From contig CAWCNJ010000008.1 in NCBI GenBank assembly GCA_963796955.1, positions 384,001 to 448,000 on the forward strand: a DNA stretch of 64,000 bases, given 5' to 3'. This DNA comes from Endomicrobiales bacterium. GTDB taxonomy: Bacteria; Elusimicrobiota; Endomicrobiia; Endomicrobiales; JALOBY01. Positions 11,631 through 25,742 of this stretch are shown one piece after another (the first letter of the stretch is position 1; every line of letters begins with the position of its first letter). The position numbers and the translations under genes are program-made. Below the pieces are notes generated by a model. That model had not been told where the DNA came from. It saw nothing but the letters and a program-made list of their open reading frames with translations, and did not search any database.

Positions 11631-13355
11631 ATGCGCTATTCAAAATTCTTTGTACCCACGCTCCGCGAAGCACCGTCTGACGCCGACATTATTTCAGCCA
11701 AGCTTATGTTGAGAGCCGGAATGATACGCAAAGTCGCCTCAGGCCTGTATGAATGGCTGCCACTCGGCCTTCGGGTACTAAAGAATGTTGAACAAATTAT
11801 CCGTGAAGAGATGAACAGTATAGACGGTCAGGAAATTTGGATGCCAATAGTGCAGCCCAAAGAACTGTGGGAAGAGACCGGCAGGTGGGGATTTTACGGC
11901 AAAGAACTGTGCCGGCTCAAAGACCGCAAAGGCGCCGAGTACTGCCTTGGACCCACTCACGAGGAAGTCGTGACAGATCTTGTACGCCGCGAAGTTAGAA
12001 GCTACCGCCAGCTGCCGTTAATGCTCTACCAGTTCGGCACAAAGTTCCGCGACGAGATCCGCCCGAGGTTCGGCGTAATGCGCGCCAGAGAATTTTTGAT
12101 GAAGGACGCCTATTCTTTCCACGCCGATGAAGCTGACGCCGAAACATACTACAAACGCGCCTATGATGCTTACAACAAAATATGTACCCGCTGCGGCTTT
12201 AAGTTCCGTGCCGTTGAAGCAACCACCGGCGCGATAGGCGGCTCGTTCTCTCACGAATTCATGGTACTTGCCGACACCGGCGAAGAAACCATAGCCAACT
12301 GCGAATGCGGATACGGCGCCAACCTTGAAAAAGCAGAGTGCAAACTACCTGAACCCTGGCCATCCAAGCAGGAACCGCTTCCTATGGAAGAAGTTCACAC
12401 ACCCAACCTGAAGAGCGTTGAGGAAGTTGGAAAGTTCATGAAAGCAAAACCTAATAAATTTATTAAAACACTTGTTTATGTTGCCGACGGCATACCCGTT
12501 ATAGCCCTTGTAAGAGGCGACTACGAAGTAAATGAACATAAACTAAAAAACATACTGGACGCTAAAGAGCTGAACCTGGCCGACGAAACCGTGATAACAA
12601 AAGTCACCGGCGCCCCCTGCGGCTTTGCAGGCCCGCACAGCCTGGTTGATCAAACTGTAAAAATAGTTGCCGACCATTCCGTAACCGACATGGTTAACGC
12701 CGTCGTTGGCGCCAACAAGCATGATTACCACTGCAAGAACATAAACATAAACCGTGACTACAAACCCACCGTTGTCGCCGACATCCGTAACGTGGTAGAA
12801 GGCGACCTGTGCAAAGTCTGCGGCAAAAAAATAAACTTCTGCCGCGGCATTGAAGTTGGCCATACTTTCAAACTTGGCACCAAATACTCCAAATCTATGA
12901 ACGCCGTATACCTGAACCCCGAAGGCAAAGAAAACCTTATGATCATGGGCTGCTACGGCATAGGCGTTTCCCGTATTCTTGCCGCGACAATTGAACAATC
13001 CCACGACGACAACGGCATAATATGGCCCCTGGCCCTTGCACCCTTTAAGGTAAGCATAGTAGCCGTAGACCTCAACCACGCCCCAACAAAAGAAGCCGCT
13101 GAAAAACTGTATTCAGAACTTTCCACTCTCGGCATTGAAGTGCTGCTGGATGACCGGGATGAGCGCGCCGGCGTAAAATTTAAAGATGCCGACCTGATGG
13201 GCATACCCCTGCGCGTAACCATAAGCGAAAAGACCCTGGCGCAAAACAGCGTAGAATTCAAACTCCGCCACGAAGATTTCAAAAGCGCCAAACTTATCGC
13301 CCTCGACAAGATAATCGAAGAGATCAATACTCGCTGTAAAACCTTTGGATTGTAA
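11631..13355 (+). CDS. proS: Proline--tRNA ligase (with editing domain)
   Basis: LGPTHEE, KFRDEIRPRFG, IEVGHTF and MGCYGIG motifs. Confidence 0.98.
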   Translation: MRYSKFFVPTLREAPSDADIISAKLMLRAGMIRKVASGLYEWLPLGLRVLKNVEQIIREEMNSIDGQEIWMPIVQPKELWEETGRWGFYGKELCRLKDRKGAEYCLGPTHEEVVTDLVRREVRSYRQLPLMLYQFGTKFRDEIRPRFGVMRAREFLMKDAYSFHADEADAETYYKRAYDAYNKICTRCGFKFRAVEATTGAIGGSFSHEFMVLADTGEETIANCECGYGANLEKAECKLPEPWPSKQEPLPMEEVHTPNLKSVEEVGKFMKAKPNKFIKTLVYVADGIPVIALVRGDYEVNEHKLKNILDAKELNLADETVITKVTGAPCGFAGPHSLVDQTVKIVADHSVTDMVNAVVGANKHDYHCKNININRDYKPTVVADIRNVVEGDLCKVCGKKINFCRGIEVGHTFKLGTKYSKSMNAVYLNPEGKENLMIMGCYGIGVSRILAATIEQSHDDNGIIWPLALAPFKVSIVAVDLNHAPTKEAAEKLYSELSTLGIEVLLDDRDERAGVKFKDADLMGIPLRVTISEKTLAQNSVEFKLRHEDFKSAKLIALDKIIEEINTRCKTFGL

Positions 13356-13365
13356 GGAACTGGAC

Positions 13366-13707
13366 ATGAAGATAGTAACCGATTCAATCTCTCTCGAAGA
13401 ACTTAAACAAATGGCCGCAGGCTTATTCGGTGACATGGTAAAAGCCGTCGTTGATATTGAACGCAGCGTTATTGCAGTTGACGCCGAACTGCATTCTGAC
13501 CTTGAGGCATTGCTATTAGAAAATGGTTCAAAACAGAAAGATGTGTGGGGTATTAACCTCTATCCTGAACTAAATGGAGAGGATTTTGTTGAATTTTCCT
13601 CTATGATAAATATGCGCCCATCGCAAGACAATATGAGCCGTGGCGTTGATGATGAGAAAACCCGTAAACGCATTGTCGACGTCGTTACAAAAAGGGTGAC
13701 AAAGTGA
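13366..13707 (+). CDS. Conserved hypothetical protein (DUF5674-like)
   Basis: MVKAVVDIER...AELHSDLE...LLENGS...WGINLYP...MINMRP pattern; ATG 13366 follows AAGGAA. Confidence 0.7.
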   Translation: MKIVTDSISLEELKQMAAGLFGDMVKAVVDIERSVIAVDAELHSDLEALLLENGSKQKDVWGINLYPELNGEDFVEFSSMINMRPSQDNMSRGVDDEKTRKRIVDVVTKRVTK

Positions 13708-14036
13708 CAACCCAACACGCCCAGCTAGCCGAAGGGCGCTGGTTCCAGATGTCATTTTTAGACCAGATGGCGAACATCGGCAGCGAAGTTGAACGCGCCC
13801 TGAACTGGAAAACCAGGAACAACGCTGCATACACGCAAAAAGCCTTTATACGCACACTTGAACTACTAGACCTTACGTTAGAAGATGCAAGAAATAATCG
13901 ACGATTAAAAGAACTTGCCCGCGTCCGAGAAGCCATAGTAGATTATTTCAGCGGTTCCAATGAGTTCGCCTCAACAGAAGTATCATGGAAAAAATACTTC
14001 CTAAACTTCGCCTACGCTGCACGTAAGAACCACTAA
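13704..14036 (+). CDS. Conserved hypothetical helical protein coupled to the DUF5674-like gene
   Basis: GTGA start/stop overlap; QMANIGSEVERA motif. Confidence 0.7.
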   Translation: MTTQHAQLAEGRWFQMSFLDQMANIGSEVERALNWKTRNNAAYTQKAFIRTLELLDLTLEDARNNRRLKELARVREAIVDYFSGSNEFASTEVSWKKYFLNFAYAARKNH

Positions 14037-14428: not shown

Positions 14429-14457
14429 TTGACACTGAAAACATAATGTACTAGAAT
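14429..14457 (+). promoter_or_regulatory. sigma70 promoter of the cobalamin operon
   Basis: TTGACA-17 nt-TAGAAT. Confidence 0.75.
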
Positions 14458-14488: not shown

Positions 14489-14548
14489 TTGCCGCTCGAA
14501 ACTTCAGCACAGGAGGGCTTGCCCTCCGAAGCTTTAGCGTAGGAGGGG
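14489..14548. repeat. Two tandem ~30-bp REP-like palindromic units
   Basis: TTGCCGCTCGAAACTTCAGCACAGGAGGGC (degenerate) followed by TTGCCCTCCGAAGCTTTAGCGTAGGAGGGG. Confidence 0.6.
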
Positions 14549-14551
14549 CCC

Positions 14552-14662
14552 CGCATCGTGAGGAAGTCCCGTGAAATCCGGGCACTGCCCCGCAACGGTA
14601 ATAGTCGCCAAGGCGACTTAGTCCGGTCTATACGATGCGACGGAATAACTTTCGCGGGAAAG
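14552..14662 (+). ncRNA. Cobalamin riboswitch (compact aptamer + kissing-loop hairpin)
   Basis: Outer stem CGCATCGTG/TACGATGCG; core AGGAAGTCCCGTGAAATCCGGGCACTGCCCCGCAACGGTAA...AGTCCGG; downstream CTTTC-GCGG-GAAAG loop complementary to CCCGC (14589-14593); lies upstream of cob/btu genes. Confidence 0.9.
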
Positions 14663-14686: not shown

Positions 14687-14723
14687 AACCCTTGCTTTCT
14701 TCGAAAGCAGGGGTTTTTCTTTT
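14687..14723 (+). terminator. Intrinsic terminator (riboswitch expression platform)
   Basis: AACCCTTGCTTTC-TTC-GAAAGCAGGGGTT followed by TTTCTTTT, immediately before the cobO RBS. Confidence 0.85.
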
Positions 14724-14732
14724 GGAGGTAAA

Positions 14733-15251
14733 ATGCTTTACATCAACACAGGGAACGGGAAGGGGAAGAGTACCGCGGCTATGGGGCAGATGTTGCGCTC
14801 TATCGGGCAGGGGTGGAAGGTTTGCCTGGTGCAGCTTTTTAAGGGGAAGAGCTTTTACGGGGAGCAAAAAACCTTTGGGAAGTTCAAAAAACAGCTTGAT
14901 TTTTACTCTTTTGCCCCCAAACACCCGGGGTGTTTTCCAAAAACTGATAGAAAATTGGTGCGGAAACAGTGTTTGGAGGCTCTTTCGTTTATCCACAAGT
15001 TACTCACAGGCAGAAAACGATACCAATTATTAGTGATGGAAGAGTTCAATATAGCCATCCGGGATGGCTATATGACCACTAAAGAAGTACTTGAAGTAGT
15101 CAACGATTTTTACAGTATATCGGACATTGTAATAACAGGCAGAGGCGCGCCAAAGGCTTTGATCGAACGGGCTGACCTTGTTACCGAGATGAAGGAAATA
15201 AAGCACCCCTTCCGTAAAGGCATAAAATCTCGCAGAGGGATAGAATTTTAA
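14733..15251 (+). CDS. cobO: Corrinoid adenosyltransferase (CobA/CobO/BtuR family)
   Basis: TGNGKGKSTAA, QLFKG, ITGR, ADLVTEMKEIKHPF and GIEF motifs. Confidence 0.93.
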   Translation: MLYINTGNGKGKSTAAMGQMLRSIGQGWKVCLVQLFKGKSFYGEQKTFGKFKKQLDFYSFAPKHPGCFPKTDRKLVRKQCLEALSFIHKLLTGRKRYQLLVMEEFNIAIRDGYMTTKEVLEVVNDFYSISDIVITGRGAPKALIERADLVTEMKEIKHPFRKGIKSRRGIEF

Positions 15252-15252
15252 C

Positions 15253-15771
15253 ATGGGAACCCTTATTTTCATAACCGGTGGAGCTCGTTCCGGCAAAAGC
15301 AGACTGGCGACAGACCTGGCGGGGCAGGCTGGTAAGCACGTGGCCTTTATTGCCACCGGGCAGGCCCTGGACAAGGAGATGGCGGAGCGCATAAAGAAGC
15401 ACCAAAGCGACCGGCCTGCCGGTTGGAAAACCGTTGAGGAACCCTTAAATATTGCATCGGCTATAGCGAAACTACCGAAAAATACACAGGCAGTGATCAT
15501 CGATTGCCTTACCTTATTGGTAACGAACCTGATGCTTTCAGGAAAAACCGATAAGCAAATTAAAGATGCGATTAAAAACGTTATAACGACAGCGAAGAGT
15601 ATCAAAGCTACCGTGATCGTGGTTTCTAACGAAGTTGGGGCAGGAATTGTGCCAGAGAACAAAATGGCACGGGATTTCAGGGATATAGCAGGGATAGCAA
15701 ATCAAATAGTTGCAAAAGCAAGCGACAAAGCCTACGCAATGTTTGCCGGTTATCCGGTGAAGTTAAAATAA
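15253..15771 (+). CDS. cobU: Adenosylcobinamide kinase / adenosylcobinamide-phosphate guanylyltransferase
   Basis: ITGGARSGKS, IDCLT and VSNEVG motifs. Confidence 0.96.
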   Translation: MGTLIFITGGARSGKSRLATDLAGQAGKHVAFIATGQALDKEMAERIKKHQSDRPAGWKTVEEPLNIASAIAKLPKNTQAVIIDCLTLLVTNLMLSGKTDKQIKDAIKNVITTAKSIKATVIVVSNEVGAGIVPENKMARDFRDIAGIANQIVAKASDKAYAMFAGYPVKLK

Positions 15772-15784
15772 AGGAGCAACGACC

Positions 15785-16855
15785 ATGACACTTAAAGAAG
15801 CGATCTCAAAGATCACCGACCTGGATGTGACGCTGATGAACAAAGCGCAGGAGAAACTGGATAGCTTAACAAAACCTCAGGGCAGCCTTGGGCGCCTGGA
15901 AGAACTGGCCAAACAGATCGTCGCTATCAGCGGCAATATAAAACCTGAGATAACCAACAAATATATCGTCACAGTTGCTGGCGACCATGGCGTAGCAAAG
16001 GAAGGCGTCAGCGCATTCCCGCAGGAAGTTACACCGCAGATGGTACATAACTTCCTTACCGGCGGGGCCGCTATCAATGTTCTCGCCCGCAACATCGGAG
16101 CGAAAGTTATGGTCGTGGATGCAGGCGTTGCATCAGACATTCCGGCTCACCCCGACCTCCTGATCAGGAAGATCGGTTATGGGACAGCAAACATAGCCAA
16201 AGGTCCCGCGATGAGCAGGGAAGACGCTATTAAGGCTCTTGAAACCGGCATAGAATTAGTCGCCCAGCTTAAGAGCAAAGGTGCGCACATAATAGGAACC
16301 GGTGATATGGGGATAGCCAACACCACTCCCTCCAGCGCGATAGTTGCTGCGATAACGGGCGCGGCAGTGGAGAGCCTTACGGGCAGGGGCACCGGCATTG
16401 ACGATAAGGGCCTTGATTTGAAGATAAGCGTGATAAAAAAAGCTCTCTCGCTTAATGCTCCCGACAAAAACGATGGGATCGATGTGCTCAGCAAAGTCGG
16501 CGGCTTTGAGATCGGCGTTATTGCCGGTATATTTATAGGCGGCGCCGCGAACCGCATTCCCGTAGTTATCGACGGTTTCATTTCCGGCGCAGGCGCGCTC
16601 ATCGCCTCAATTATCGCCCCAAAAGCAAAACAATATATGATCCCTTCGCACTGTTCAGTAGAGGCAGGCCACGCCGTAACACTTACTTTCATGGGTTTAA
16701 AACCTCTATTCAATATGAATATGCGCCTTGGCGAAGGAACCGGTGCCGCTCTTGGGATCCAGTTCGTTGAGGCCTCAGTAAAAATACTGAACGAAATGGC
16801 AACGTTCGCTCAGGCAGGAGTTTCTGAAAAATCGGAAGAATCGAAGGTCAACTAA
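15785..16855 (+). CDS. cobT: Nicotinate-nucleotide--dimethylbenzimidazole phosphoribosyltransferase
   Basis: LTKPQGSLGRLE, GDMGIANTT and MRLGEGTGA motifs. Confidence 0.97.
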   Translation: MTLKEAISKITDLDVTLMNKAQEKLDSLTKPQGSLGRLEELAKQIVAISGNIKPEITNKYIVTVAGDHGVAKEGVSAFPQEVTPQMVHNFLTGGAAINVLARNIGAKVMVVDAGVASDIPAHPDLLIRKIGYGTANIAKGPAMSREDAIKALETGIELVAQLKSKGAHIIGTGDMGIANTTPSSAIVAAITGAAVESLTGRGTGIDDKGLDLKISVIKKALSLNAPDKNDGIDVLSKVGGFEIGVIAGIFIGGAANRIPVVIDGFISGAGALIASIIAPKAKQYMIPSHCSVEAGHAVTLTFMGLKPLFNMNMRLGEGTGAALGIQFVEASVKILNEMATFAQAGVSEKSEESKVN

Positions 16856-17602
16856 ATGCTCGGATTCCTTACTGCTCTGCAGTTCCTAACGATCATCCCT
16901 TTACGATTATCTCGCGTTCCTGCAAAGCGTGATTTTGCGACTGCTATTGCGACATTTCCTTTAGCGGGAATTTGCATAGGACTGATCGTGCTGTTATCCA
17001 GGGCTGTATTTTCGTACGTACTTTCCGGGACTGCGCTCAGTGTGGTTATGGTGATAACTCTTATGGTAATCACCGGCGGGCTGCATTTGGACGGGCTTGC
17101 AGATACTGCCGACGGGATCGGAGCCCGCGCAGACCGTGAAAGGACGCTTGAGATAATGCGTGACAGCAGGATCGGTACCATGGGCGTTTTGGCGCTGATT
17201 TCTGTCATATTACTGAAGGTCTATCTGTTCGCGTATCTACCGACGCATAGAATGTTTGCGGCTATTGTTTGCACTATGGCGGTAAGCCGCGCATGCCAAC
17301 TGATACCAATGTATTTTTTTCCGTATGCCAGAAGCAGTGGGAAAGCTTCTTCCTTCATTGAAGCGCTTTCAAAACCGGCGGTCTTTGCGGCACTGTGCAT
17401 TTCAGCTATTCTGGCAGGCAGCTTGCTGCATTACGCAGGTATTATCGCACTGTTGGTTACCGGAATCACGGCTTATATAATCAGCCGGGCAGTAAGCAAT
17501 AAACTGGGAGGTATCACCGGTGATGTTATTGGCGCTGTCAGCGAAATATCCGAAATAGTTTTTTTGGTAACGATAATTGCCTTGCAAGGGGTGCCTCTGT
17601 GA
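16856..17602 (+). CDS. cobS: Cobalamin synthase
   Basis: TGGLHLDGLADTADG, IMRDSRIG and GGITGDV motifs. Confidence 0.97.
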   Translation: MLGFLTALQFLTIIPLRLSRVPAKRDFATAIATFPLAGICIGLIVLLSRAVFSYVLSGTALSVVMVITLMVITGGLHLDGLADTADGIGARADRERTLEIMRDSRIGTMGVLALISVILLKVYLFAYLPTHRMFAAIVCTMAVSRACQLIPMYFFPYARSSGKASSFIEALSKPAVFAALCISAILAGSLLHYAGIIALLVTGITAYIISRAVSNKLGGITGDVIGAVSEISEIVFLVTIIALQGVPL

Positions 17603-18051
17603 ACAAACCCGGTGTATTAAAACAGCTAAAGCCTTTCGGTGTCACGCTTGATGTGCTGGTCGCAACGGGCATGATGATGTACATTTATGACCCGGCGATA
17701 GGCAAGCCGGCCTCTGTCAGAAAGACAGTTGAGAAAGAAACGATAAAAGCGCTTAACGATATTAATATCGCGGCGCTCATAACCGCCGGCGTCGAGCTGG
17801 AAAGGCTTGGCCTGGAAGGCAGGCTGCCAAACATTTCGAAAAAGAAGTTCGAGACCGATCCCGTTGACCTTATCGCTGATGAGATACTCGGGCAGGGCAT
17901 CGCGATGTATCTGGCAGGAACACGGGCGCTCTTTGAGTTCGAACGCCTGGATAAAAAGAAGCCTGGAATAATCGCGAAGCTGCCTCCATTCATGGACGAT
18001 ATTGTGGCAGGATTAATAGCCGGGGTAATGGTAAAAGTATGCTCAAATTGA
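17599..18051 (+). CDS. cobZ: Alpha-ribazole-5'-phosphate phosphatase, CobZ/PgpA-like type
   Basis: DPVDLIADE...FERLDKKKPGII..LPPFMDD..AGLIAG pattern; coupled to cobS. Confidence 0.75.
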   Translation: MNKPGVLKQLKPFGVTLDVLVATGMMMYIYDPAIGKPASVRKTVEKETIKALNDINIAALITAGVELERLGLEGRLPNISKKKFETDPVDLIADEILGQGIAMYLAGTRALFEFERLDKKKPGIIAKLPPFMDDIVAGLIAGVMVKVCSN

Positions 18052-18887
18052 CAACGTCCGGCGTTCAGCGTTTAGCGTATAGTGTAACTGCCCTACTGCT
18101 GATAATTTCAGGAACTGCATTTGCGTATGAACGGATCATTTCGCTTGCACCGTCTTTGACGCGCGACGTGTATCTGCTTGGGATACAGGACAAACTGGTT
18201 GGCGTCACCATGTATTGCCCGGATTTCGCGAAAGGAAAAGAGAATGTCGGTTCCGTTCAAGCTCCGAATCTGGAACGTATCGCTGCGCTTAAACCCGACG
18301 TTGTGCTTGCCACCAAAGACGGCAACGATCGCCGGACGGTAGACAAGCTGCGGTCGATGGGCATAAACGTGTATGTTTTAGGTTCGCCATCGACGATTGA
18401 TACTATTTGTTCTGAATTCATTGAACTCGGCAAATATCTTGGAGTTGAGGCAACGGCGAAAACGATAGTTAAGCAGGCTCGGGAAAAGATACAGACCGTC
18501 CGTACGCATATACCGGCAAACGGGCAGAAAAAAGTATTCTGGCAGGTAGGCGCTCACCCGATATTCACGGTCAGCAAGAACAGCTTCGTAAATGAATTCA
18601 TGGCGTTGAGCGGGGTCAAAAATGTATTCCAAGATCTGAAAGCCCGTTACCCGCAGATCACCAGGGAAGCCGTTATAGCCGCTGATCCGGACATAATAAT
18701 AATCGTTACCATGGACGGCGAAATGTCCACCGAAAAAGCTAACTGGGCACAGTTCGCTCAGTTAAGCGCCGTAAAGAACAACCGTGTGTTTTTCATACGC
18801 GATATGATGTTCGACAACCCGACACCCCTTGCCCTAGCCGAGGGAATAGAGAAACTCCAAACGATCTTTTATCCGACGACAAAATGA
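18039..18887 (+). CDS. btuF: Corrinoid ABC transporter substrate-binding protein
   Basis: Signal peptide; RIISLAPS, LERIAALKPDVV and LSAVKNNRV motifs. Confidence 0.85.
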   Translation: MLKLTTSGVQRLAYSVTALLLIISGTAFAYERIISLAPSLTRDVYLLGIQDKLVGVTMYCPDFAKGKENVGSVQAPNLERIAALKPDVVLATKDGNDRRTVDKLRSMGINVYVLGSPSTIDTICSEFIELGKYLGVEATAKTIVKQAREKIQTVRTHIPANGQKKVFWQVGAHPIFTVSKNSFVNEFMALSGVKNVFQDLKARYPQITREAVIAADPDIIIIVTMDGEMSTEKANWAQFAQLSAVKNNRVFFIRDMMFDNPTPLALAEGIEKLQTIFYPTTK

Positions 18888-19879
18888 AACGTAATGTACC
18901 AACCTTCCTGATACTTATATTTGCGCTGCTTTGCAGCGCCATGGCATCGCTGCTTGTAGGGGCGGCGGACATAACGCCCGCGCAGCTTTTTAACGCCCTG
19001 CTGCACCCGCATGCCGGCGGTACCGTTTCAACTATAGTCTGGCACCTGCGTATGACCCGCACCGCAATGGCCATAATAACCGGCATGGGTCTTGCCGGCT
19101 GCGGCTGCGTCTTTCAGGGAGTGCTGCGAAACCCGCTTGCAGACCCGTACACGCTTGGTGTTTCGGGCGGCGCCGCTTTCGGCGCTACCCTGGCTATCGC
19201 TTCCGGTATTGCTGCCATGGGAATGTTTTTCCTGCCTATCGCCGCTTTTGCAGGCGCTCTGTTTTGCGTCAGCCTGGTATATGCCGCGGCATCACGGCGC
19301 GGTTTTTCGCAAAGCTCTTTGATACTCGGGGGTGTAGTGCTTGGCTTTGTGTTTTCCTCCATGGTGCTGCTGGTAATAGCTCTGGCAGACGCGCAAAAAG
19401 TGCAGTCAACGGTTTTGTGGCTTATGGGCGATCTTGCAACGGCGAGCGGTACGATGGTAATGCTAACCGGACTGTGCGTATTTTTCGGAATAGCGGCCTT
19501 ATCATTTTTTGCCAGCGATCTGAACATTCTGACCCTCGGTGAGGAAAAGGCGATGCACCTGGGCCTTGAACCGATGAAACTCAAAAAAGTGCTTTTCGCC
19601 ATAGCTTCGCTGGTGACCGGTGCGGTTGTCGCGGCGACCGGCATAATCGGGTTCGTGGGGCTGATAATACCTCACGCCGTGCGGCGTTTCACCGGTCCTG
19701 ACCACAGGGTATTGATCCCGGCATCTGCACTTGCCGGCGCGGCATTCCTGCTGGTTTGCGACACGATAGCCCGCACTATCATCGCACCTACGGAATTGCC
19801 CGTGGGCGTAATAACAGGGCTTACCGGCGGCATATTCTTTCTGGGATATTTAATGACCTCCCGCAATAAGGTGTTTTAA
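18884..19879 (+). CDS. btuC: Corrinoid ABC transporter permease (FecCD/BtuC)
   Basis: LRNPLADPY, LGEEKA..LG, IGFVGL and ELPVG motifs. Confidence 0.88.
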   Translation: MKRNVPTFLILIFALLCSAMASLLVGAADITPAQLFNALLHPHAGGTVSTIVWHLRMTRTAMAIITGMGLAGCGCVFQGVLRNPLADPYTLGVSGGAAFGATLAIASGIAAMGMFFLPIAAFAGALFCVSLVYAAASRRGFSQSSLILGGVVLGFVFSSMVLLVIALADAQKVQSTVLWLMGDLATASGTMVMLTGLCVFFGIAALSFFASDLNILTLGEEKAMHLGLEPMKLKKVLFAIASLVTGAVVAATGIIGFVGLIIPHAVRRFTGPDHRVLIPASALAGAAFLLVCDTIARTIIAPTELPVGVITGLTGGIFFLGYLMTSRNKVF

Positions 19880-19882
19880 CGA

Positions 19883-20695
19883 ATGATACTGGAACTGCGT
19901 AACATAACAGCAGGCTACGGCGGAATAACTGCGCTTAACAATATTAACTGCTCCATAGCAGAGGGTGAGATAACCGGTATTATCGGGCCCAACGGCGCCG
20001 GCAAAACGACCTTGTTCCGCGCTATTACAGGCACGCTCCGCCCGCGCTCGGGAAACGTATATTTTAACGGCATAGACATTCACAGCATCCCGCGCAGGGA
20101 GTTCGCCAGGCAGGTCGCCGCCATGCCGCAGATGCTTGAATCCTTCTTTCCATTTTCTGTTGAAGATTTTGTGGCTATGGGCAGGTTCCCGCACCACTCC
20201 CGTTTTGAGGGAACGACGGCCCAGGACGAACAGGCCACGGAACAAGCCCTTACCGATACCGAAACCGCTTCCTTCAGAACGCGTCAGATGAATGAGCTTT
20301 CCGGCGGGGAACGTCAGCGCGTGATGCTGGCGCAGGCACTGGCTCAATCGCCGAAATTGCTGCTGCTTGACGAACCTACCGCCCACCTGGACATAGGCCA
20401 CCAGGTGCAGATGCTTGAGCTTATCCGTTCGCTTAACCGTGAAAAGGGCATAACCGTCGTGACCGTACTGCATGACCTCACCCTGGCCGGAGAATACTGC
20501 GACCAGCTACTAATGCTGAAGAAAGGCGCTGTGCACGCCCTTGGCATACCAGCCGACGTTCTCACCTATCAAAACATTGAATCCGTCTATAATACTGTCG
20601 TGGTAGTCAAAGAAAATCCGTTCTCGCACAAGCCGTATATTATCGCCGTGCCCGAAGAATACCGGAGCAAAAGGTATAACAATGAAACCCGGTAA
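19883..20695 (+). CDS. btuD: Corrinoid ABC transporter ATPase
   Basis: GPNGAGKT, LSGGERQR and LLLDEPTAHLD motifs. Confidence 0.88.
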   Translation: MILELRNITAGYGGITALNNINCSIAEGEITGIIGPNGAGKTTLFRAITGTLRPRSGNVYFNGIDIHSIPRREFARQVAAMPQMLESFFPFSVEDFVAMGRFPHHSRFEGTTAQDEQATEQALTDTETASFRTRQMNELSGGERQRVMLAQALAQSPKLLLLDEPTAHLDIGHQVQMLELIRSLNREKGITVVTVLHDLTLAGEYCDQLLMLKKGAVHALGIPADVLTYQNIESVYNTVVVVKENPFSHKPYIIAVPEEYRSKRYNNETR

Positions 20696-22220
20696 AACGA
20701 TTATGATCCAGGGGACCGGCTCCGGCGTCGGCAAAAGTGTGATCACTTCCGCCCTGTGCCGGATATTCAGACAGGACGGCCATTCGGTCGCGCCTTTTAA
20801 GGCCCAAAACATGGCCTTAAATTCCTTCGTGACCGAGACCGGCGGGGAAATAGGCAGGGCCCAGGCAGTACAGGCGCAGGCCGCAAAAGTTAAGCCTACC
20901 GTTGATATGAACCCTGTTTTAATAAAACCTTCCTCCGACATGATGGCGCAAATAATAGTGCTTGGCAAACCGCTCGGCAACAAATCGGCGGCCGGCTACA
21001 CGAACTACAAAGGCAGGCTTTTTGGTACGGTCAAGAATTCGCTCCGCAATTTACGCAAAGAACACGATATAGTCGTTTTGGAAGGCGCGGGCAGCCCGGC
21101 CGAAGTGAACCTGCGCAAGAACGACATCGTGAACATGAGCATAGCACTGGCCAGCAAAACGCCCGTGATACTTGTAGGCGACATCGACAAGGGCGGCGTG
21201 CTCGCGTCAATAGTCGGCACATTGGACCTGATAAACAAAAAAGAATGCGCTCTTATAAAAGGCTTTATCATCAACAAATTTCGAGGCGATATCAAATTGT
21301 TCAGGGACGGCGTAAGGTTCCTTGAACGGCGTACGGGCAAAAAGGTGCTGGGCGTGATACCGTACTACCGCGAGATAGATATCCCGGAAGAAGATGCCAT
21401 ACCGTGGGAAAAGAAAAACGCCGCAAAAGACGGCAGGCGCGTTGTGAAGATCGCGGTGATCTGCCTTCCGCATTTGTCGAATTTTACGGACTTCGATGTT
21501 CTGGAGCAGGAGCCGGATGTTGAGCTTACCTATGTCAGAAAAGCAGCTGAACTCGGACAACCTGATGCGGTAATAATACCCGGCACAAAAAGTACGATCG
21601 CCGACCTTATGTGGTTGAAGCGGGAAGGCCTGGCCGAAAAAATACAAGTTCTTGCGCAAAACCGCGCCACGGAGGTTATCGGTATCTGCGGCGGTTTTCA
21701 GATGCTGGGGGATGAAATTATCGACAGCAACCGTCTTGAATCTAAGACCGGATCCGCACAAGGGCTTGGTCTTTTACCGGTAAAAACAAAGTTGGAACCC
21801 GCAAAGACATTACGGCAGGTCACGGGCCTGCACATTCCGACAAATACTAAAGTCACAGGATATGAGATCCACCACGGCCTGACAACACGGCACCATGGCT
21901 GCAAACCAGCCTTCAGGCTATCCGGGATACAAACCCTTGACGGCGCGATCAACAAAAACGGTTCTGTATGGGGAACCTACATCCACGGGGTTTTTGATAA
22001 TTTTGCTATGCGCAATTCATTTATCAATACTCTTCGAAAGAAGAGGGGACTCGCACCGCGCTCTGTAAAGGAACGCGACACTGATATTGAATTCGATAAA
22101 CTCGCGGACCATGTGCGGGGGAATATTGATATGAAAGCTTTATATAAGATCGCAGGAGCAGCAATGCCTGCTGGTGTCGGGAAGCTCGTGAGAATAAAAT
22201 CAAGGAGAAATTTAAAATGA
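20682..22220 (+). CDS. cobQ: Cobyric acid synthase
   Basis: QGTGSGVGKS, PFKAQNM, EGAGSPAE, GICGGFQMLG and GTYIHG motifs. Confidence 0.96.
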   Translation: MKPGKTIMIQGTGSGVGKSVITSALCRIFRQDGHSVAPFKAQNMALNSFVTETGGEIGRAQAVQAQAAKVKPTVDMNPVLIKPSSDMMAQIIVLGKPLGNKSAAGYTNYKGRLFGTVKNSLRNLRKEHDIVVLEGAGSPAEVNLRKNDIVNMSIALASKTPVILVGDIDKGGVLASIVGTLDLINKKECALIKGFIINKFRGDIKLFRDGVRFLERRTGKKVLGVIPYYREIDIPEEDAIPWEKKNAAKDGRRVVKIAVICLPHLSNFTDFDVLEQEPDVELTYVRKAAELGQPDAVIIPGTKSTIADLMWLKREGLAEKIQVLAQNRATEVIGICGGFQMLGDEIIDSNRLESKTGSAQGLGLLPVKTKLEPAKTLRQVTGLHIPTNTKVTGYEIHHGLTTRHHGCKPAFRLSGIQTLDGAINKNGSVWGTYIHGVFDNFAMRNSFINTLRKKRGLAPRSVKERDTDIEFDKLADHVRGNIDMKALYKIAGAAMPAGVGKLVRIKSRRNLK

Positions 22221-24052
22221 AATTTTTTGCATACATAATGACCGCCTTTGCATTTACCGTATCGGCCTTTGCCGCTGATAGCGGTGTATTCCTCTCGCTA
22301 ACCAGGAAAGCTGAAGATATCGCAAGCCTGCCCACCAATGTTTCAACTATTTCAGGCAGCGATATCGCTGAAAAACACGCCCGAAACCTTGGGGAGGCCC
22401 TTCAGTCTGAATTGGGGTTTAACATCAATCAATATGGCACGCTTGGCTCAAATAGCAATATTACGATAAGGGGATCTAAAACCGAGCAGGTATTGGTGCT
22501 CATTGACGGCCGCCGTATAAATGACATAGCACTTGGCCTTGTGGACCTGAGTTCTATCCCGACAGATAACATTAAGCGCATTGAAGTGATCCGCGGAGCG
22601 GCTTCGGCGATCTACGGAGCCAATGCCTTTGGCGGTGTCATTAACGTAATAACGGAAAAGGCTGATGAGGCAGCGCCGGTCGCAACTCTCGCAGCGCGAT
22701 CAGGATCGTTTGGTGAACAGACATACAGCTCGAAGCTCAATCTGAATAAAAATGAAAGATCGTTACTTGTCACTCTGGAGAAACAGCATCTTGACGGCTG
22801 GAGACAAAACAGCGACTACAATAATATCAATAGTTCGCTACGGCTTGGCCTGAACACATCGCGCTACGGTAATTTCGACTTTTCCAGCCAGATCCTTAAT
22901 AGCGAGCTTGGAATACCGGGCGGAAATTTTTCGGCAGACCCCAATACTTTTACCGACCCGACCGCCGCTTCATCACCCCGGGCTCGCCAGAAAGAGAATA
23001 ACAGATATGCCCGTATGGAAAATACATTTAACACTGGTGAGCACTCCCTGAAAACGTCGATATACGGATCCAATGACTCAAGGGATTACAGCGATCCAGA
23101 CTCTGTATTGGACGCCCGTTACGGCACGATGGTTTTCGGCGGACAGGAGCAATATACAGGACCTTACAACATTACCGCGGGGACCGAATGGTGGGAGGAA
23201 CAATATAAACAGACAGATCTGGAGCTTTCAGAGGTTGTCCTTAATAAGAGCCGCGTGAACACCGACATATTCCTGCAACGGCAAACCTTTGTCGGTAAAT
23301 TCATGTTTTTGCCCGGTCTCCGCTTTGACTCCAACTCGTCATTTGGATCGGAAGCGTGCCCCAGCCTGAGCGTGGTTTATAAACAAAGTGATTCTTTCAA
23401 AATCTCTGCCAATACCGGTAAAGCGTGGCGAGCCCCGACATTCAGCGACCTGTATTTCCCTATGGACGCCTACGGAGACGTTGGCAACCCCGCGCTAAAA
23501 CCGGAGGAAGGTATTTCCAGCGACCTTGGTGTTGAGGTCAAGTCGGGCAAAACCTCTGTTTCCGTAACGGGATTTCGTACCGACAATAGAAATCTTATAA
23601 GCTGGGTGCCGAATTCTACGGGCATGCTTTTCTCTCCGCAAAATATCAATACGAGCCGCAGCTCCGGCATAGAAGCCGGTTTCGATCAAACACTGGCCGC
23701 CGGCCTTGCCCACTCAATTAACTACACATACCTGTGGGCTGAAGACACAGACACAAAACAAGTGCTGATATATTCGCCGTGCAACACGCTTAACTACCAG
23801 ATCAACTGGCTGATGCCGTGCGGCACTCTCCTGGGTATTTCTGCCAAATACGTAAGCCAGCAGATGGCAACCGCGACAACAACCCTGAACGATTACACGA
23901 CCATTGGCGCACAACTTTCGCATAATTTCGAGAATATTGACATTTGGGTCAAGGGGTCGAATTTAACCGACAGAAAATATGTTACCCGCCAATACTACCC
24001 GCTCCCGGGCGCAACCTGGCAGGCAGGAGTCACTTACAAGTTCTGGAACTGA
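22217..24052 (+). CDS. btuB: TonB-dependent outer membrane receptor, BtuB-like
   Basis: Signal peptide; plug motif IEVIRGAASAIYGANAFGGVINVIT; RAPTFSDLY, GNPALKPE and NLTD motifs; aromatic C-terminus; in the cobalamin operon. Confidence 0.85.
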   Translation: MKFFAYIMTAFAFTVSAFAADSGVFLSLTRKAEDIASLPTNVSTISGSDIAEKHARNLGEALQSELGFNINQYGTLGSNSNITIRGSKTEQVLVLIDGRRINDIALGLVDLSSIPTDNIKRIEVIRGAASAIYGANAFGGVINVITEKADEAAPVATLAARSGSFGEQTYSSKLNLNKNERSLLVTLEKQHLDGWRQNSDYNNINSSLRLGLNTSRYGNFDFSSQILNSELGIPGGNFSADPNTFTDPTAASSPRARQKENNRYARMENTFNTGEHSLKTSIYGSNDSRDYSDPDSVLDARYGTMVFGGQEQYTGPYNITAGTEWWEEQYKQTDLELSEVVLNKSRVNTDIFLQRQTFVGKFMFLPGLRFDSNSSFGSEACPSLSVVYKQSDSFKISANTGKAWRAPTFSDLYFPMDAYGDVGNPALKPEEGISSDLGVEVKSGKTSVSVTGFRTDNRNLISWVPNSTGMLFSPQNINTSRSSGIEAGFDQTLAAGLAHSINYTYLWAEDTDTKQVLIYSPCNTLNYQINWLMPCGTLLGISAKYVSQQMATATTTLNDYTTIGAQLSHNFENIDIWVKGSNLTDRKYVTRQYYPLPGATWQAGVTYKFWN

Positions 24053-24068
24053 CAAGGAGGTGGAAATA

Positions 24069-24176
24069 ATGAAAAAAAGTAAAAGTAGCCCTAAGAAAGA
24101 CGTGATTGCATCAAGGAAGAAATGCGTAGCCAAAGGCACCGGACTTTCGCATTACGTTCTTTTGGACAAGAAATAA
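24069..24176 (+). CDS. cbpA: 35-aa RiPP precursor-like peptide (CbpA-like)
   Basis: AAGGAGGT RBS then MKKSKSSPKKDVIASRKKCVAKGTGLSHYVLLDKK; directly upstream of an rSAM/SPASM gene; the DVIA.R..C...GTGLSHY pattern matches my recollection of the CbpA family. Confidence 0.82.
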   Translation: MKKSKSSPKKDVIASRKKCVAKGTGLSHYVLLDKK

Positions 24177-24196
24177 TCAACAGAAAAACCTCAATC

Positions 24197-24235
24197 AGCG
24201 GAGAAAGCTATTCTTACAACGGCTTTCTCCGCTTT
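24197..24235 (+). terminator. Stem-loop between precursor and maturase genes
   Basis: AGCGGAGAAAGCT-11 nt-GGCTTTCTCCGCT then TT; the U-tract is short, so probably leaky. Confidence 0.6.
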
Positions 24236-24256
24236 AGAAAACACAACAAGGAAACA

Positions 24257-25654
24257 ATGAAAAACATTAATAAATTCGCCAACAACGCCTCCTCCAGCGG
24301 CAAATACTTGAACACCGGCAACGGTTCTTCCCTGCAAATAATCGACATAAAACACAAAGAATATATCGGAGTGGTAGCACCTGACACCGCCTTCTGGGCC
24401 CTTGTCAAGAAAGATCAGCTGCACAAAGTATTTGACGATCCCAAATATATTTCCAGCTATTTAAAGAAAAGCGGACAATTCAAAAAGGAAATAGACGATC
24501 TCAGGTTCAACCTGAAACCGTCGGCTGTCTACTTTAACCCGACCGACCGCTGCAACTTGAACTGTTCTTACTGTTATATCCCTGAAAAGCTAAGAAAGAA
24601 TGGCGACAACATGACACCGAAAAGGCTTTTACAGGCACTGGAAATATTGAAAAGATATTTTACCGAAAGCCTCGGAAAAGAACACAGGCCGCAGATAGTC
24701 TTCCATGGCGCGGAACCGATGGTCAACCACGAGGCAATGTTCCCTGCGATCGACAAGTTCGGAGATTATTTCCGTTTCGGCATACAGTCTAATGGTACTC
24801 TGCTTGACGATACTGCGCTGAAATTCCTTACTTCGCGCGGGATCAGCATCGGCCTTTCGCTTGATGGACCCACAGCAGGTATAGCAGACAAGACCCGCAA
24901 AACGTGGGCAGGAAAAGGTGTATCGCACACAACGATCGATCTGATAAAACGTTTAAAAGGCTACCGCAATTATTCAGTTATCTGCACGGTAACCAAAGAA
25001 AATATGCGTTCGCTCAATGAGACGGTTGAATTACTGCATAAATTGGAAGTGCCCACCTGCATGCTTAATCAGGTCCGGTGCACTCTACCCGGCGGGCAAA
25101 AGGCAAAACCCGCGGACGCCGACATGGCAGCCTACTACATGAAGGCGCTTGATCATGCGCATTCACTTTACAAAAAGACGGGAAGAAAAATAGTGGTGGC
25201 TAATTTTGCAAACATCCTGCTTAGCATTCTTGCGCCGAGCGGGCGCAAGCTGATGTGCGACATATCACCTTGCGGCGGCGGGCGCTGTTTTTTTGCTGTT
25301 TCCGCTCAGGGGAATATGTTCCCTTGCAGCGAATTTATAGGCCTGAAAAAATTTCAGGGCGGGAATCTCTTCAAAGATAACATACAAGATGTGCTGAGAT
25401 CAGAACCATTCAAGCTGGTGACCAGACGGAAGGTTGAAGACATTGAACCCTGCGCACATTGTGCTATACGCCATTTTTGCGGCTCACCCTGCCCGGCAGA
25501 GGCCCATGAGATTCATGGATCTATGCAAAAACCAGGAGCCTTCTGCGAACTTTATGAAGAACAGGCACGTTATGCATTCCGCGTTATCGCAGACGGCAAA
25601 GAAGACGCCTACTTATGGGACAACTGGAAAAGCGGCATGACAGAAGCCCTTTAG
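24257..25654 (+). CDS. cbpB: Peptide-modifying radical SAM/SPASM enzyme (CbpB-like)
   Basis: CNLNCSYC rSAM motif, FHGAEP, SLDG and SPASM cysteines CGGGRC...PC...CAHC...CGSPC...C. Start ATG 24257 after AAGGAA is preferred over 24122. Confidence 0.88.
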   Translation: MKNINKFANNASSSGKYLNTGNGSSLQIIDIKHKEYIGVVAPDTAFWALVKKDQLHKVFDDPKYISSYLKKSGQFKKEIDDLRFNLKPSAVYFNPTDRCNLNCSYCYIPEKLRKNGDNMTPKRLLQALEILKRYFTESLGKEHRPQIVFHGAEPMVNHEAMFPAIDKFGDYFRFGIQSNGTLLDDTALKFLTSRGISIGLSLDGPTAGIADKTRKTWAGKGVSHTTIDLIKRLKGYRNYSVICTVTKENMRSLNETVELLHKLEVPTCMLNQVRCTLPGGQKAKPADADMAAYYMKALDHAHSLYKKTGRKIVVANFANILLSILAPSGRKLMCDISPCGGGRCFFAVSAQGNMFPCSEFIGLKKFQGGNLFKDNIQDVLRSEPFKLVTRRKVEDIEPCAHCAIRHFCGSPCPAEAHEIHGSMQKPGAFCELYEEQARYAFRVIADGKEDAYLWDNWKSGMTEAL

Positions 25655-25681: not shown

Positions 25682-25742
25682 TTGACATTTAAACGATAAC
25701 CCGTTAGACTTGTAACGTCGCTATGTTTTCTGTCTAACGGGT
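25682..25742 (+). promoter_or_regulatory. sigma70 promoter overlapped by an 11-bp inverted repeat
   Basis: TTGACA-17 nt-TAGACT; ACCCGTTAGAC (25699-25709) / GTCTAACGGGT (25732-25742). Confidence 0.5.

Follow-up and report, generated by a model that had tools for sequence, protein, structure and literature searches.

A CbpA/CbpB radical SAM peptide system at the tail of a corrinoid salvage operon in an Endomicrobiales bacterium, with a possible role in late cobamide assembly

INTRODUCTION

The CbpA/CbpB family, a short precursor peptide and its radical S-adenosylmethionine (SAM) maturase, is already catalogued in NCBIfam (TIGR04164, cobo_pep; TIGR04163, rSAM_cobopep), the models reportedly having been defined by Haft and Basu in 2011. 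A further member is encoded in the DNA examined here, a 64,000-nucleotide stretch from an Endomicrobiales bacterium (assembly GCA_963796955.1, contig CAWCNJ010000008.1, positions 384,001 to 448,000; hereafter the window). The window pair has the gene order and cobalamin context of the family, and no difference was seen at family level. A preliminary description of this DNA knew of no characterised product, and the literature we searched, with few subscription papers and no supplements, contained no study of CbpA or CbpB.

Among characterised maturases, PapB gave the second-best NCBIfam match to CbpB (138 bits, cut-off 340), while the anSME (109 bits, cut-off 349) and SCIFF maturase (105.6 bits, cut-off 425) models scored lower still; no cut-off for a characterised maturase in NCBIfam was passed. 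The top sequence match in the PDB was CteB (5WGG/5WHY; E = 5e-23, approximately 20% identity). For the control regions, the closest described systems are the repressing metE riboswitch of P. megaterium and the activating cobT riboswitch of A. halodurans, described in PMC10653944.

What is new here is a set of functional constraints: co-occurrence with cobT and cobS, rarity of the receptor, activating-type riboswitches and spacer hairpins. They lead us to propose, with a probability of roughly 0.4, that uncleaved, cross-linked CbpA aids the finishing of cobinamide to cobamide; the likeliest means would be corrinoid binding via His28.

RESULTS

A conserved precursor and its predicted maturase

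Membership of the window pair in the family is virtually certain. Both curated cut-offs were passed (Table 1), the CbpB match extending across all 428 positions, and the precursor gene immediately precedes that of the enzyme within a cob/btu operon with a riboswitch; the family assignment given in the preliminary description is thereby borne out. At E ≤ 1e-80 the CbpB family comprises 2,446 proteins. The closest relative found is 78% identical. A single-protein scan of genome contigs returned 2 loci, and the ESM Atlas solely unnamed clusters.

The window CbpA has the core Cys19-x5-Gly-Leu-Ser-His28-Tyr29, and 11 of its 35 residues are Lys or Arg. Comparison of the GLSHY codons of relatives with those of the window gave 160 identical, 209 synonymous and 1 non-synonymous; as the peptides had been chosen by the GLSHY motif, the synonymous count alone is informative. 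Because these codons differ mostly synonymously, cbpA is, judged from its coding sequence, under protein-level selection.

By pattern, a CbpA-type open reading frame (ORF) was found directly 5′ of cbpB at 76 of 91 loci (one duplicate included), or 80 when 4 variants are counted. The 15 pattern misses comprise 9 loci that abut or lie close to the end of a contig, 2 with Ala for the core Ser, 2 in which Ser replaces Cys and Thr replaces Ser, and 2 with a degenerate remnant. Of 22 additional loci, 21 likewise had such a peptide immediately upstream; among them is a clade at approximately 41% identity that retains the pattern R-x-K-C-x5-GLSH(Y/F). A profile search gave 257 matches; in the best 150 of these, Gly, Leu and His were found without exception, Ser in 149 and Tyr in 146; Cys stood at its usual spacing in 143, was shifted by a longer linker in 6 and was absent from 1. 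Two precursors (P0121 and P0122) carry the whole conserved unit in two tandem copies. The peptides in which both Cys and Ser are replaced, by Ser and Thr respectively, belong to genomes G200 and G112 (loci L097 and L099). Both genomes carry cbiD and bluB, cytochrome oxidase genes lie near L097, and the variants constitute a natural test of the Cys requirement. In another organism, G105 (loci L098 and L014, apparently the same organism), cbpB lies behind thiamine genes and no CbpA family match was found in the genome.

No conserved peptidase, exporter or tailoring enzyme was found among neighbour clusters present in at least 3 loci, a survey confined to neighbourhoods, with unlinked genes unsearched. 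This agrees with the earlier remark that neither a peptidase nor an exporter is encoded locally. The leader-removal and export genes of a classical ribosomally synthesised and post-translationally modified peptide (RiPP) were likewise missing from these clusters.

In CbpB, the CxxxCxxC motif (C99/C103/C106) and seven SPASM cysteines (C339, C357, C399, C402, C408, C412 and C430), both noted in the preliminary description, were located and are invariant in 133 aligned sequences (Pfam PF04055 and PF13186). The predicted structure (pLDDT 91) folds residues 27–84 into three strands and two helices. Fold matches to anSME, ChlB and CteB were tied (Z = 34–35). Of these, CteB alone spans the N-terminal domain (Z = 34.5, model residues 24–448 on chain residues 1–450), whereas alignments to anSME (PDB 4K36–4K39) and ChlB (9GM3/9GMC) begin beyond it, at model residue 84–88. 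Because the CteB match covers this domain, the model supports an N-terminal RiPP recognition element (RRE)-like domain.

An eighth invariant cysteine, C334, aligns near an anSME SPASM cysteine upstream of the hairpin, and CteB likewise has a Cys in the same linker. According to PMC6231123, the anSME clusters are fully ligated, while the upstream Cys of SkfB sits 12 Å away. By analogy, C334 could close auxiliary cluster I (AuxI) as in anSME, though on the example of SkfB and CteB such a Cys need not ligate; AuxI may instead be open and bind the substrate Cys, a property of the ranthipeptide and sactipeptide maturases. C334 is therefore no proof of non-thioether chemistry.

On sequence grounds, CbpB very probably modifies CbpA. 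The precursor differs from those of PapB and CteB in having one Cys rather than six, in lacking the CxxxD motif and in carrying Ser for Cys in two genomes. A fixed PapB-type link from Cys to Gly(+4) was weakened by the 6 longer linkers and the one Cys-less peptide among the best 150. A Cys thioether, with about even odds, is no more than plausible, because two genomes have Ser in place of the Cys, whose spacing is moreover variable. A cross-link to the His or Tyr ring is a possible, less expected outcome, and some other chemistry would be surprising.

cbpAB keeps company with the last genes of cobamide assembly

Genome sets from two phyla were examined, 401 genomes from that of the host and 251 from a second phylum, to which an Omnitrophota record had led. 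cbpB was present in 9 and 22 of these, respectively, one of the 22 being a truncated match. Every cbpB genome carried cobS (9/9 against a background of 44/401, and 22/22 against 82/251) and cobT (31/31). The co-occurrence holds also where cbpAB stands alone on a separate contig. By comparison, cbiD was found in 9 and bluB in 4 of the 31 cbpB genomes, and cobQ in 13 of the 22 from the second phylum.

Gene neighbourhoods were counted at 41 loci whose flanks each extend for 5 kb or more; these counts may overlook divergent receptors. cobT and cobS were present at 26 loci, CobD at 22, cbiB at 20, a DUF71 gene at 11, a CbiX-like gene at 10, a receptor at 8 and cbiM at 7. DUF71 proteins are tied to B12 salvage in PMC3541065. 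At two loci (L129 and L130) cbpAB is inserted between cobU and cobT. Replacement of CobD or CbiB by CbpAB was rejected, as these genes stand beside it at 22 and 20 of the 41 loci. BzaB scored above its cut-off in none of 80 cobS genomes (22 of them cbpB-positive; the two weakest cbpB-negative of the 82 were left out), so that a search for anti-correlation between cbpB and bza genes is uninformative. As a separate observation, an asparagine-synthase-like gene recurs after cbiB-cobD (L013, L131, L133, L135, L138, L148, L151 and L157); cobQ was mostly not found in those operons, and the gene is a candidate non-orthologous amidase replacing CobQ.

Riboswitches and spacer hairpins at other loci

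An Rfam scan of 40 of the approximately 100 cbpAB loci, picked for small size, placed a cobalamin riboswitch immediately 5′ of cbpA in 25. In 17 of the 25 cbpA-proximal switches, and in none of 7 others (that of the window included), P13 overlaps the terminator, its 3′ arm being the terminator 5′ arm, with a 9-nt loop. Across these 17 loci the P13 stem varies in sequence yet remains paired. The remaining cbpA-proximal switches comprise 2 with the same layout and one loop base changed (by eye), 3 with a weak stem and 3 without the loop. In PMC10653944, this overlap was shown to be cobinamide-activated upstream of cobT, and most cbpA-proximal switches share the P13/terminator arm of the A. halodurans cobT switch; the resemblance to the metE and cobT switches is one of layout alone. 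Judged from that layout, the switches owned by cbpAB elsewhere look mostly corrinoid-activated. The window differs, in that the pair is operon-terminal and would be repressed. Like cobT, then, the pair occurs under both signs, which would suit a part in finishing more readily than one in scavenging.

Spacers between cbpA and cbpB were measured at 74 loci with distinct peptides: 44 are of 36 nt or less, 26 of at least 45 nt, and at 4 no start was called. All 26 long spacers fold at z < −2. The same held for none of 26 coding controls and for 15 of 59 other intergenic gaps. A U-tract is missing from most of these hairpins, which are likely transcript-stabilising or attenuating and may raise peptide over enzyme.

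The operon of the window and its control

The pair is confirmed as the tail of a cobinamide/cobamide salvage operon of 12 genes (Table 1). The first ten, from cobA/O (14733) to the receptor, are separated by −14 to +13 nt, in keeping with the tight coupling noted earlier. The receptor stop codon occupies 24050–24052, and the ATG of cbpA at 24069 lies 16 nt beyond the stop, preceded by a strong ribosome-binding site, just as the preliminary description read it. The cbpA stop codon (24174–24176) is followed by an 80-nt spacer, whose 13-bp hairpin (Table 1) the preliminary description did not mention. The ATG at 24122 given for cbpB in a mechanical ORF list was replaced by 24257, because homologues begin there. 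The receptor missed the cut-offs of both BtuB models, which were nevertheless its top matches (NF007926, 173 bits against 836, and TIGR01779, Table 1), so it is called BtuB-like by best hit and context only.

Table 1. Features of the salvage operon and its leader, in window coordinates
Feature	Position	Strand	Evidence
Sigma-70-type promoter of the operon (predicted)	14429..14457	+	11/12 consensus match, best in region
Cobalamin riboswitch aptamer, short form	14552..14639	+	Rfam RF01482 (AdoCbl), 50.9 bits, cut-off 50
P13 hairpin, loop complementary to L5 (kissing loop)	14649..14662	+	P13 −4.2 kcal/mol; L5:L13 5 bp, −11.3
Riboswitch intrinsic terminator, apart from P13	14687..14715	+	13-bp stem and U-tract, −18.9 kcal/mol, z −5.1
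cobA/cobO-like corrinoid adenosyltransferase	14733..15251	+	NF004637, 162.9 bits, under cut-off 185
cobU, cobinamide kinase/guanylyltransferase	15253..15771	+	NF004469, 203 bits, over cut-off 161
cobT, lower-base phosphoribosyltransferase	15785..16855	+	TIGR03160, 454 bits, over cut-off 319
cobS, cobamide synthase	16856..17602	+	TIGR00317, 164 bits, over cut-off 110
cobZ-like alpha-ribazole phosphatase	17599..18051	+	TIGR03161, 142.7 bits, slightly under cut-off 152.5
btuF-, btuC- and btuD-like ABC importer (3 genes)	18039..20695	+	Top matches B12/corrinoid ABC models, all under cut-off
cobQ, cobyric acid synthase	20682..22220	+	TIGR00313, 537 bits, over cut-off 310
TonB-dependent receptor, BtuB-like	22217..24052	+	TIGR01779, 226 bits, under cut-off 599.7; Pfam plug and barrel
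cbpA ribosome-binding site AAGGAGGT	24054..24061	+	Seen in sequence
cbpA, 35-aa precursor peptide	24069..24176	+	TIGR04164, 48.3 bits, over cut-off 35
13-bp hairpin in cbpA-cbpB spacer	24197..24233	+	−21.3 kcal/mol, z −5.4
cbpB, radical SAM/SPASM maturase with RRE-like N-terminal domain, 465 aa	24257..25654	+	TIGR04163, 696.3 bits, over cut-off 375

The riboswitch that had been placed at the head of the operon was recovered as an adenosylcobalamin (AdoCbl) aptamer, by a partial match (model positions 18–103 of 149) that scores barely above the cut-off; the broader model RF00174 found no match in the host genome. The 3′ arm of P13 can alternatively pair with the terminator 5′ arm. Leader prefixes ending at 14700–14709 are predicted to adopt the resulting antiterminator, which has −11.0 kcal/mol where P13 has −4.2. 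The computed layout thus has the aptamer, L5–L13 kissing loop, separate P13 and antiterminator stabler than P13 of a repressing transcriptional corrinoid riboswitch. A repressing switch is predicted, similar to the metE switch of P. megaterium, in which the same two arms pair (PMC10653944). Between promoter and aptamer lies a REP-like palindrome (14512–14549) whose 21-nt core has 5 genome matches at up to 3 mismatches.

The preliminary description saw no internal promoter. Weaker sigma-70-like sites do exist, matching 10 of 12 positions at 16506 and 9 of 12 at 22211 and 25167, but none stands clearly above chance (20 sites, against 14.0 ± 4.1 in shuffles), and a separate promoter for cbpAB was rejected for this reason. 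It had also been proposed that the peptide is made under B12 limitation. For this locus that is a fair prediction, because the switch fits the repressing model of PMC10653944, and given a single transcript that reaches cbpAB 9.5 kb downstream. It does not extend to the family, in which 17 of 25 cbpAB-owned switches are of the activating type by layout.

The host reads, from its gene content, as a cobinamide salvager. In its genome, which is 81% complete, cbiB, CbiX, cbiD, cbiZ and bluB were not found; searches with neighbour proteins returned no cobB, cobC or DUF71 gene and gave weak matches to CobD-like aminotransferases. A single ThiC-like gene scores as ThiC, with no second found, and there are 8 matches to B12-binding domains, one within a MetH-like protein. 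The cobQ of the operon is without partners in the assembly, where cbiB, cobB and ring-synthesis genes were not found; its product may serve in the repair or amidation of corrinoids taken up by salvage, or its partners may be unassembled.

Some further features of the region were noted. The operon has a CobZ-like phosphatase in place of the cobC of relatives (cobZ at 1 and cobC at 20 of 41 cbpB loci). A DUF5674 gene and an unassigned 110-aa ORF occupy 13345–14036, between proS and the operon promoter. Downstream, at 25682–25742, a sigma-70 site matching 10 of 12 positions is overlapped by an 11-bp inverted repeat (25699–25742), a possible operator or terminator before genes for a 1079-aa fibronectin-III protein and a PorV-like protein.

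DISCUSSION

A scheme for CbpA can be drawn from these data. In the absence of cobamide the antiterminator would form, and a single transcript of approximately 11 kb would extend to cbpAB, where the hairpin after cbpA would give more peptide than enzyme. The basic VIAxRK stretch of CbpA would be held on the RRE-like domain of CbpB, whose 5′-deoxyadenosyl radical would oxidise the Cys-x5-GLSH(Y/F) core by two electrons (−2 Da), the likeliest outcome being one cross-link. The modified peptide would then stay uncleaved and unexported, as an optional cytoplasmic helper at the CobU/CobT/CobS stage. Its likeliest job would be to bind corrinoid intermediates via the invariant His28, chaperoning or buffering cobinamide that lacks its base. 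Histidine is able to act as a cobalt ligand in cobalamin proteins. The tandem-unit precursors and the hairpins in all 26 long spacers fit a stoichiometric demand for the peptide.

That CbpA is a helper of the late pathway is probable. That it binds corrinoid specifically is a tentative proposal, and the fullest version, in which the whole cytoplasmic peptide binds base-less corrinoids via His and hands them to CobU/CobT/CobS, under switch activation or co-repression, is a little more tentative again. Several observations weigh against the scheme. No B12 gene was present in the stretch examined at 13 of the 41 loci, and cbpB is missing from 60 of 82 cobS genomes, of which the cobS regions of 20 showed the same gene set and no substitute gene; the pair is therefore dispensable. 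The 98%-complete genome G105 has an intact cbpB but only a degenerate cbpA remnant. Kin are not independent in the counts, most genomes are incomplete, and profile matches such as the 150 best are biased towards the consensus. An invariant His would be expected at a cross-link site no less than in a cobalt ligand. The call between activation and repression is made from layout, and the activating set has a kissing loop of only 3–4 bp. Finally, binding and modification of CbpA are predictions, as is co-transcription across the 9.5 kb to cbpAB.

Much of the same evidence would also serve other functions. Modified CbpA could be a partner protein that activates, scaffolds or inhibits CobU/CobT/CobS, possibly sited at the membrane through its Lys-rich ends, with no corrinoid binding of its own. 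This putative partnership would account equally for the co-occurrence with, and placement beside, cobT and cobS; the 11 Lys and Arg residues agree with it, and dispensability suits a modulator. The hairpins and tandem copies suggest more peptide than a regulator requires, however, and we regard it as unlikely. Consumption of CbpA as a substrate, by the logic known for pyrroloquinoline quinone and mycofactocin, could instead provide the nucleotide loop with a small molecule, such as a lower base of imidazole type excised from the invariant His. The strict dependence on cobT and an activating switch resembling that of cobT speak for this route, as do the lack of BzaB matches above cut-off in the 80 cobS genomes and the failure to find bluB, cbiZ or a second ThiC-like gene in the host genome. 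Yet BluB is present in 4 of the 31 cbpB genomes, the cbpB-negative cobS genomes are equally without bza, leaving no anti-correlation, and the neighbours include no conserved peptidase or tailoring enzyme. A lower-base origin is accordingly rather improbable.

Of the functions put forward in the preliminary description, that of a corrinoid chaperone survives as our leading hypothesis, whereas the other two fare worse. A chelator of cobalt or another metal, supplying ring metallation, would make use of Cys and His as metal ligands and would find some context in the CbiX-like chelatases near 10 and cbiM near 7 of the 41 loci. It is nonetheless very unlikely: cbiD was found in only 9 of 31 cbpB genomes, CbiX and cbiD were not found in five of five salvagers tested (incomplete genomes, the 81%-complete host among them), a salvager imports corrinoid that is already metallated, and the corrinoid-activated layouts are opposite in sign to scavenging. 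An exported ligand of the adjoining TonB-dependent receptor has in its favour that the two genes adjoin here and at two other loci (L012 and L093). By the threshold used, however, a receptor lies near only 8 of 41 loci, 18 loci that do hold cobT/S/U are without one, the neighbours include no conserved exporter or peptidase, leaving no export route, and some homologues are labelled Chloroflexi and Dehalococcoidia, which to our knowledge are without a typical outer membrane. We consider this function highly improbable. Assistance in finishing cobamides remains the reading that we prefer for CbpA.

Taken together, the data narrow the role of CbpAB to the completion of cobamide assembly, and they speak against both cobalt scavenging and receptor binding. 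The family is large and spans several mostly uncultured phyla. With two genes, the system is small and open to direct test, and its cbpA leaders are a rich natural source of candidate activating B12 riboswitches; PMC10653944 described one such switch. If CbpA does act as a chaperone or supply a base, it would be a part of B12 metabolism that has gone unrecognised, and a RiPP that performs a housekeeping function; as a corrinoid chaperone in particular, it would be a RiPP that serves as the chaperone of a cofactor pathway.

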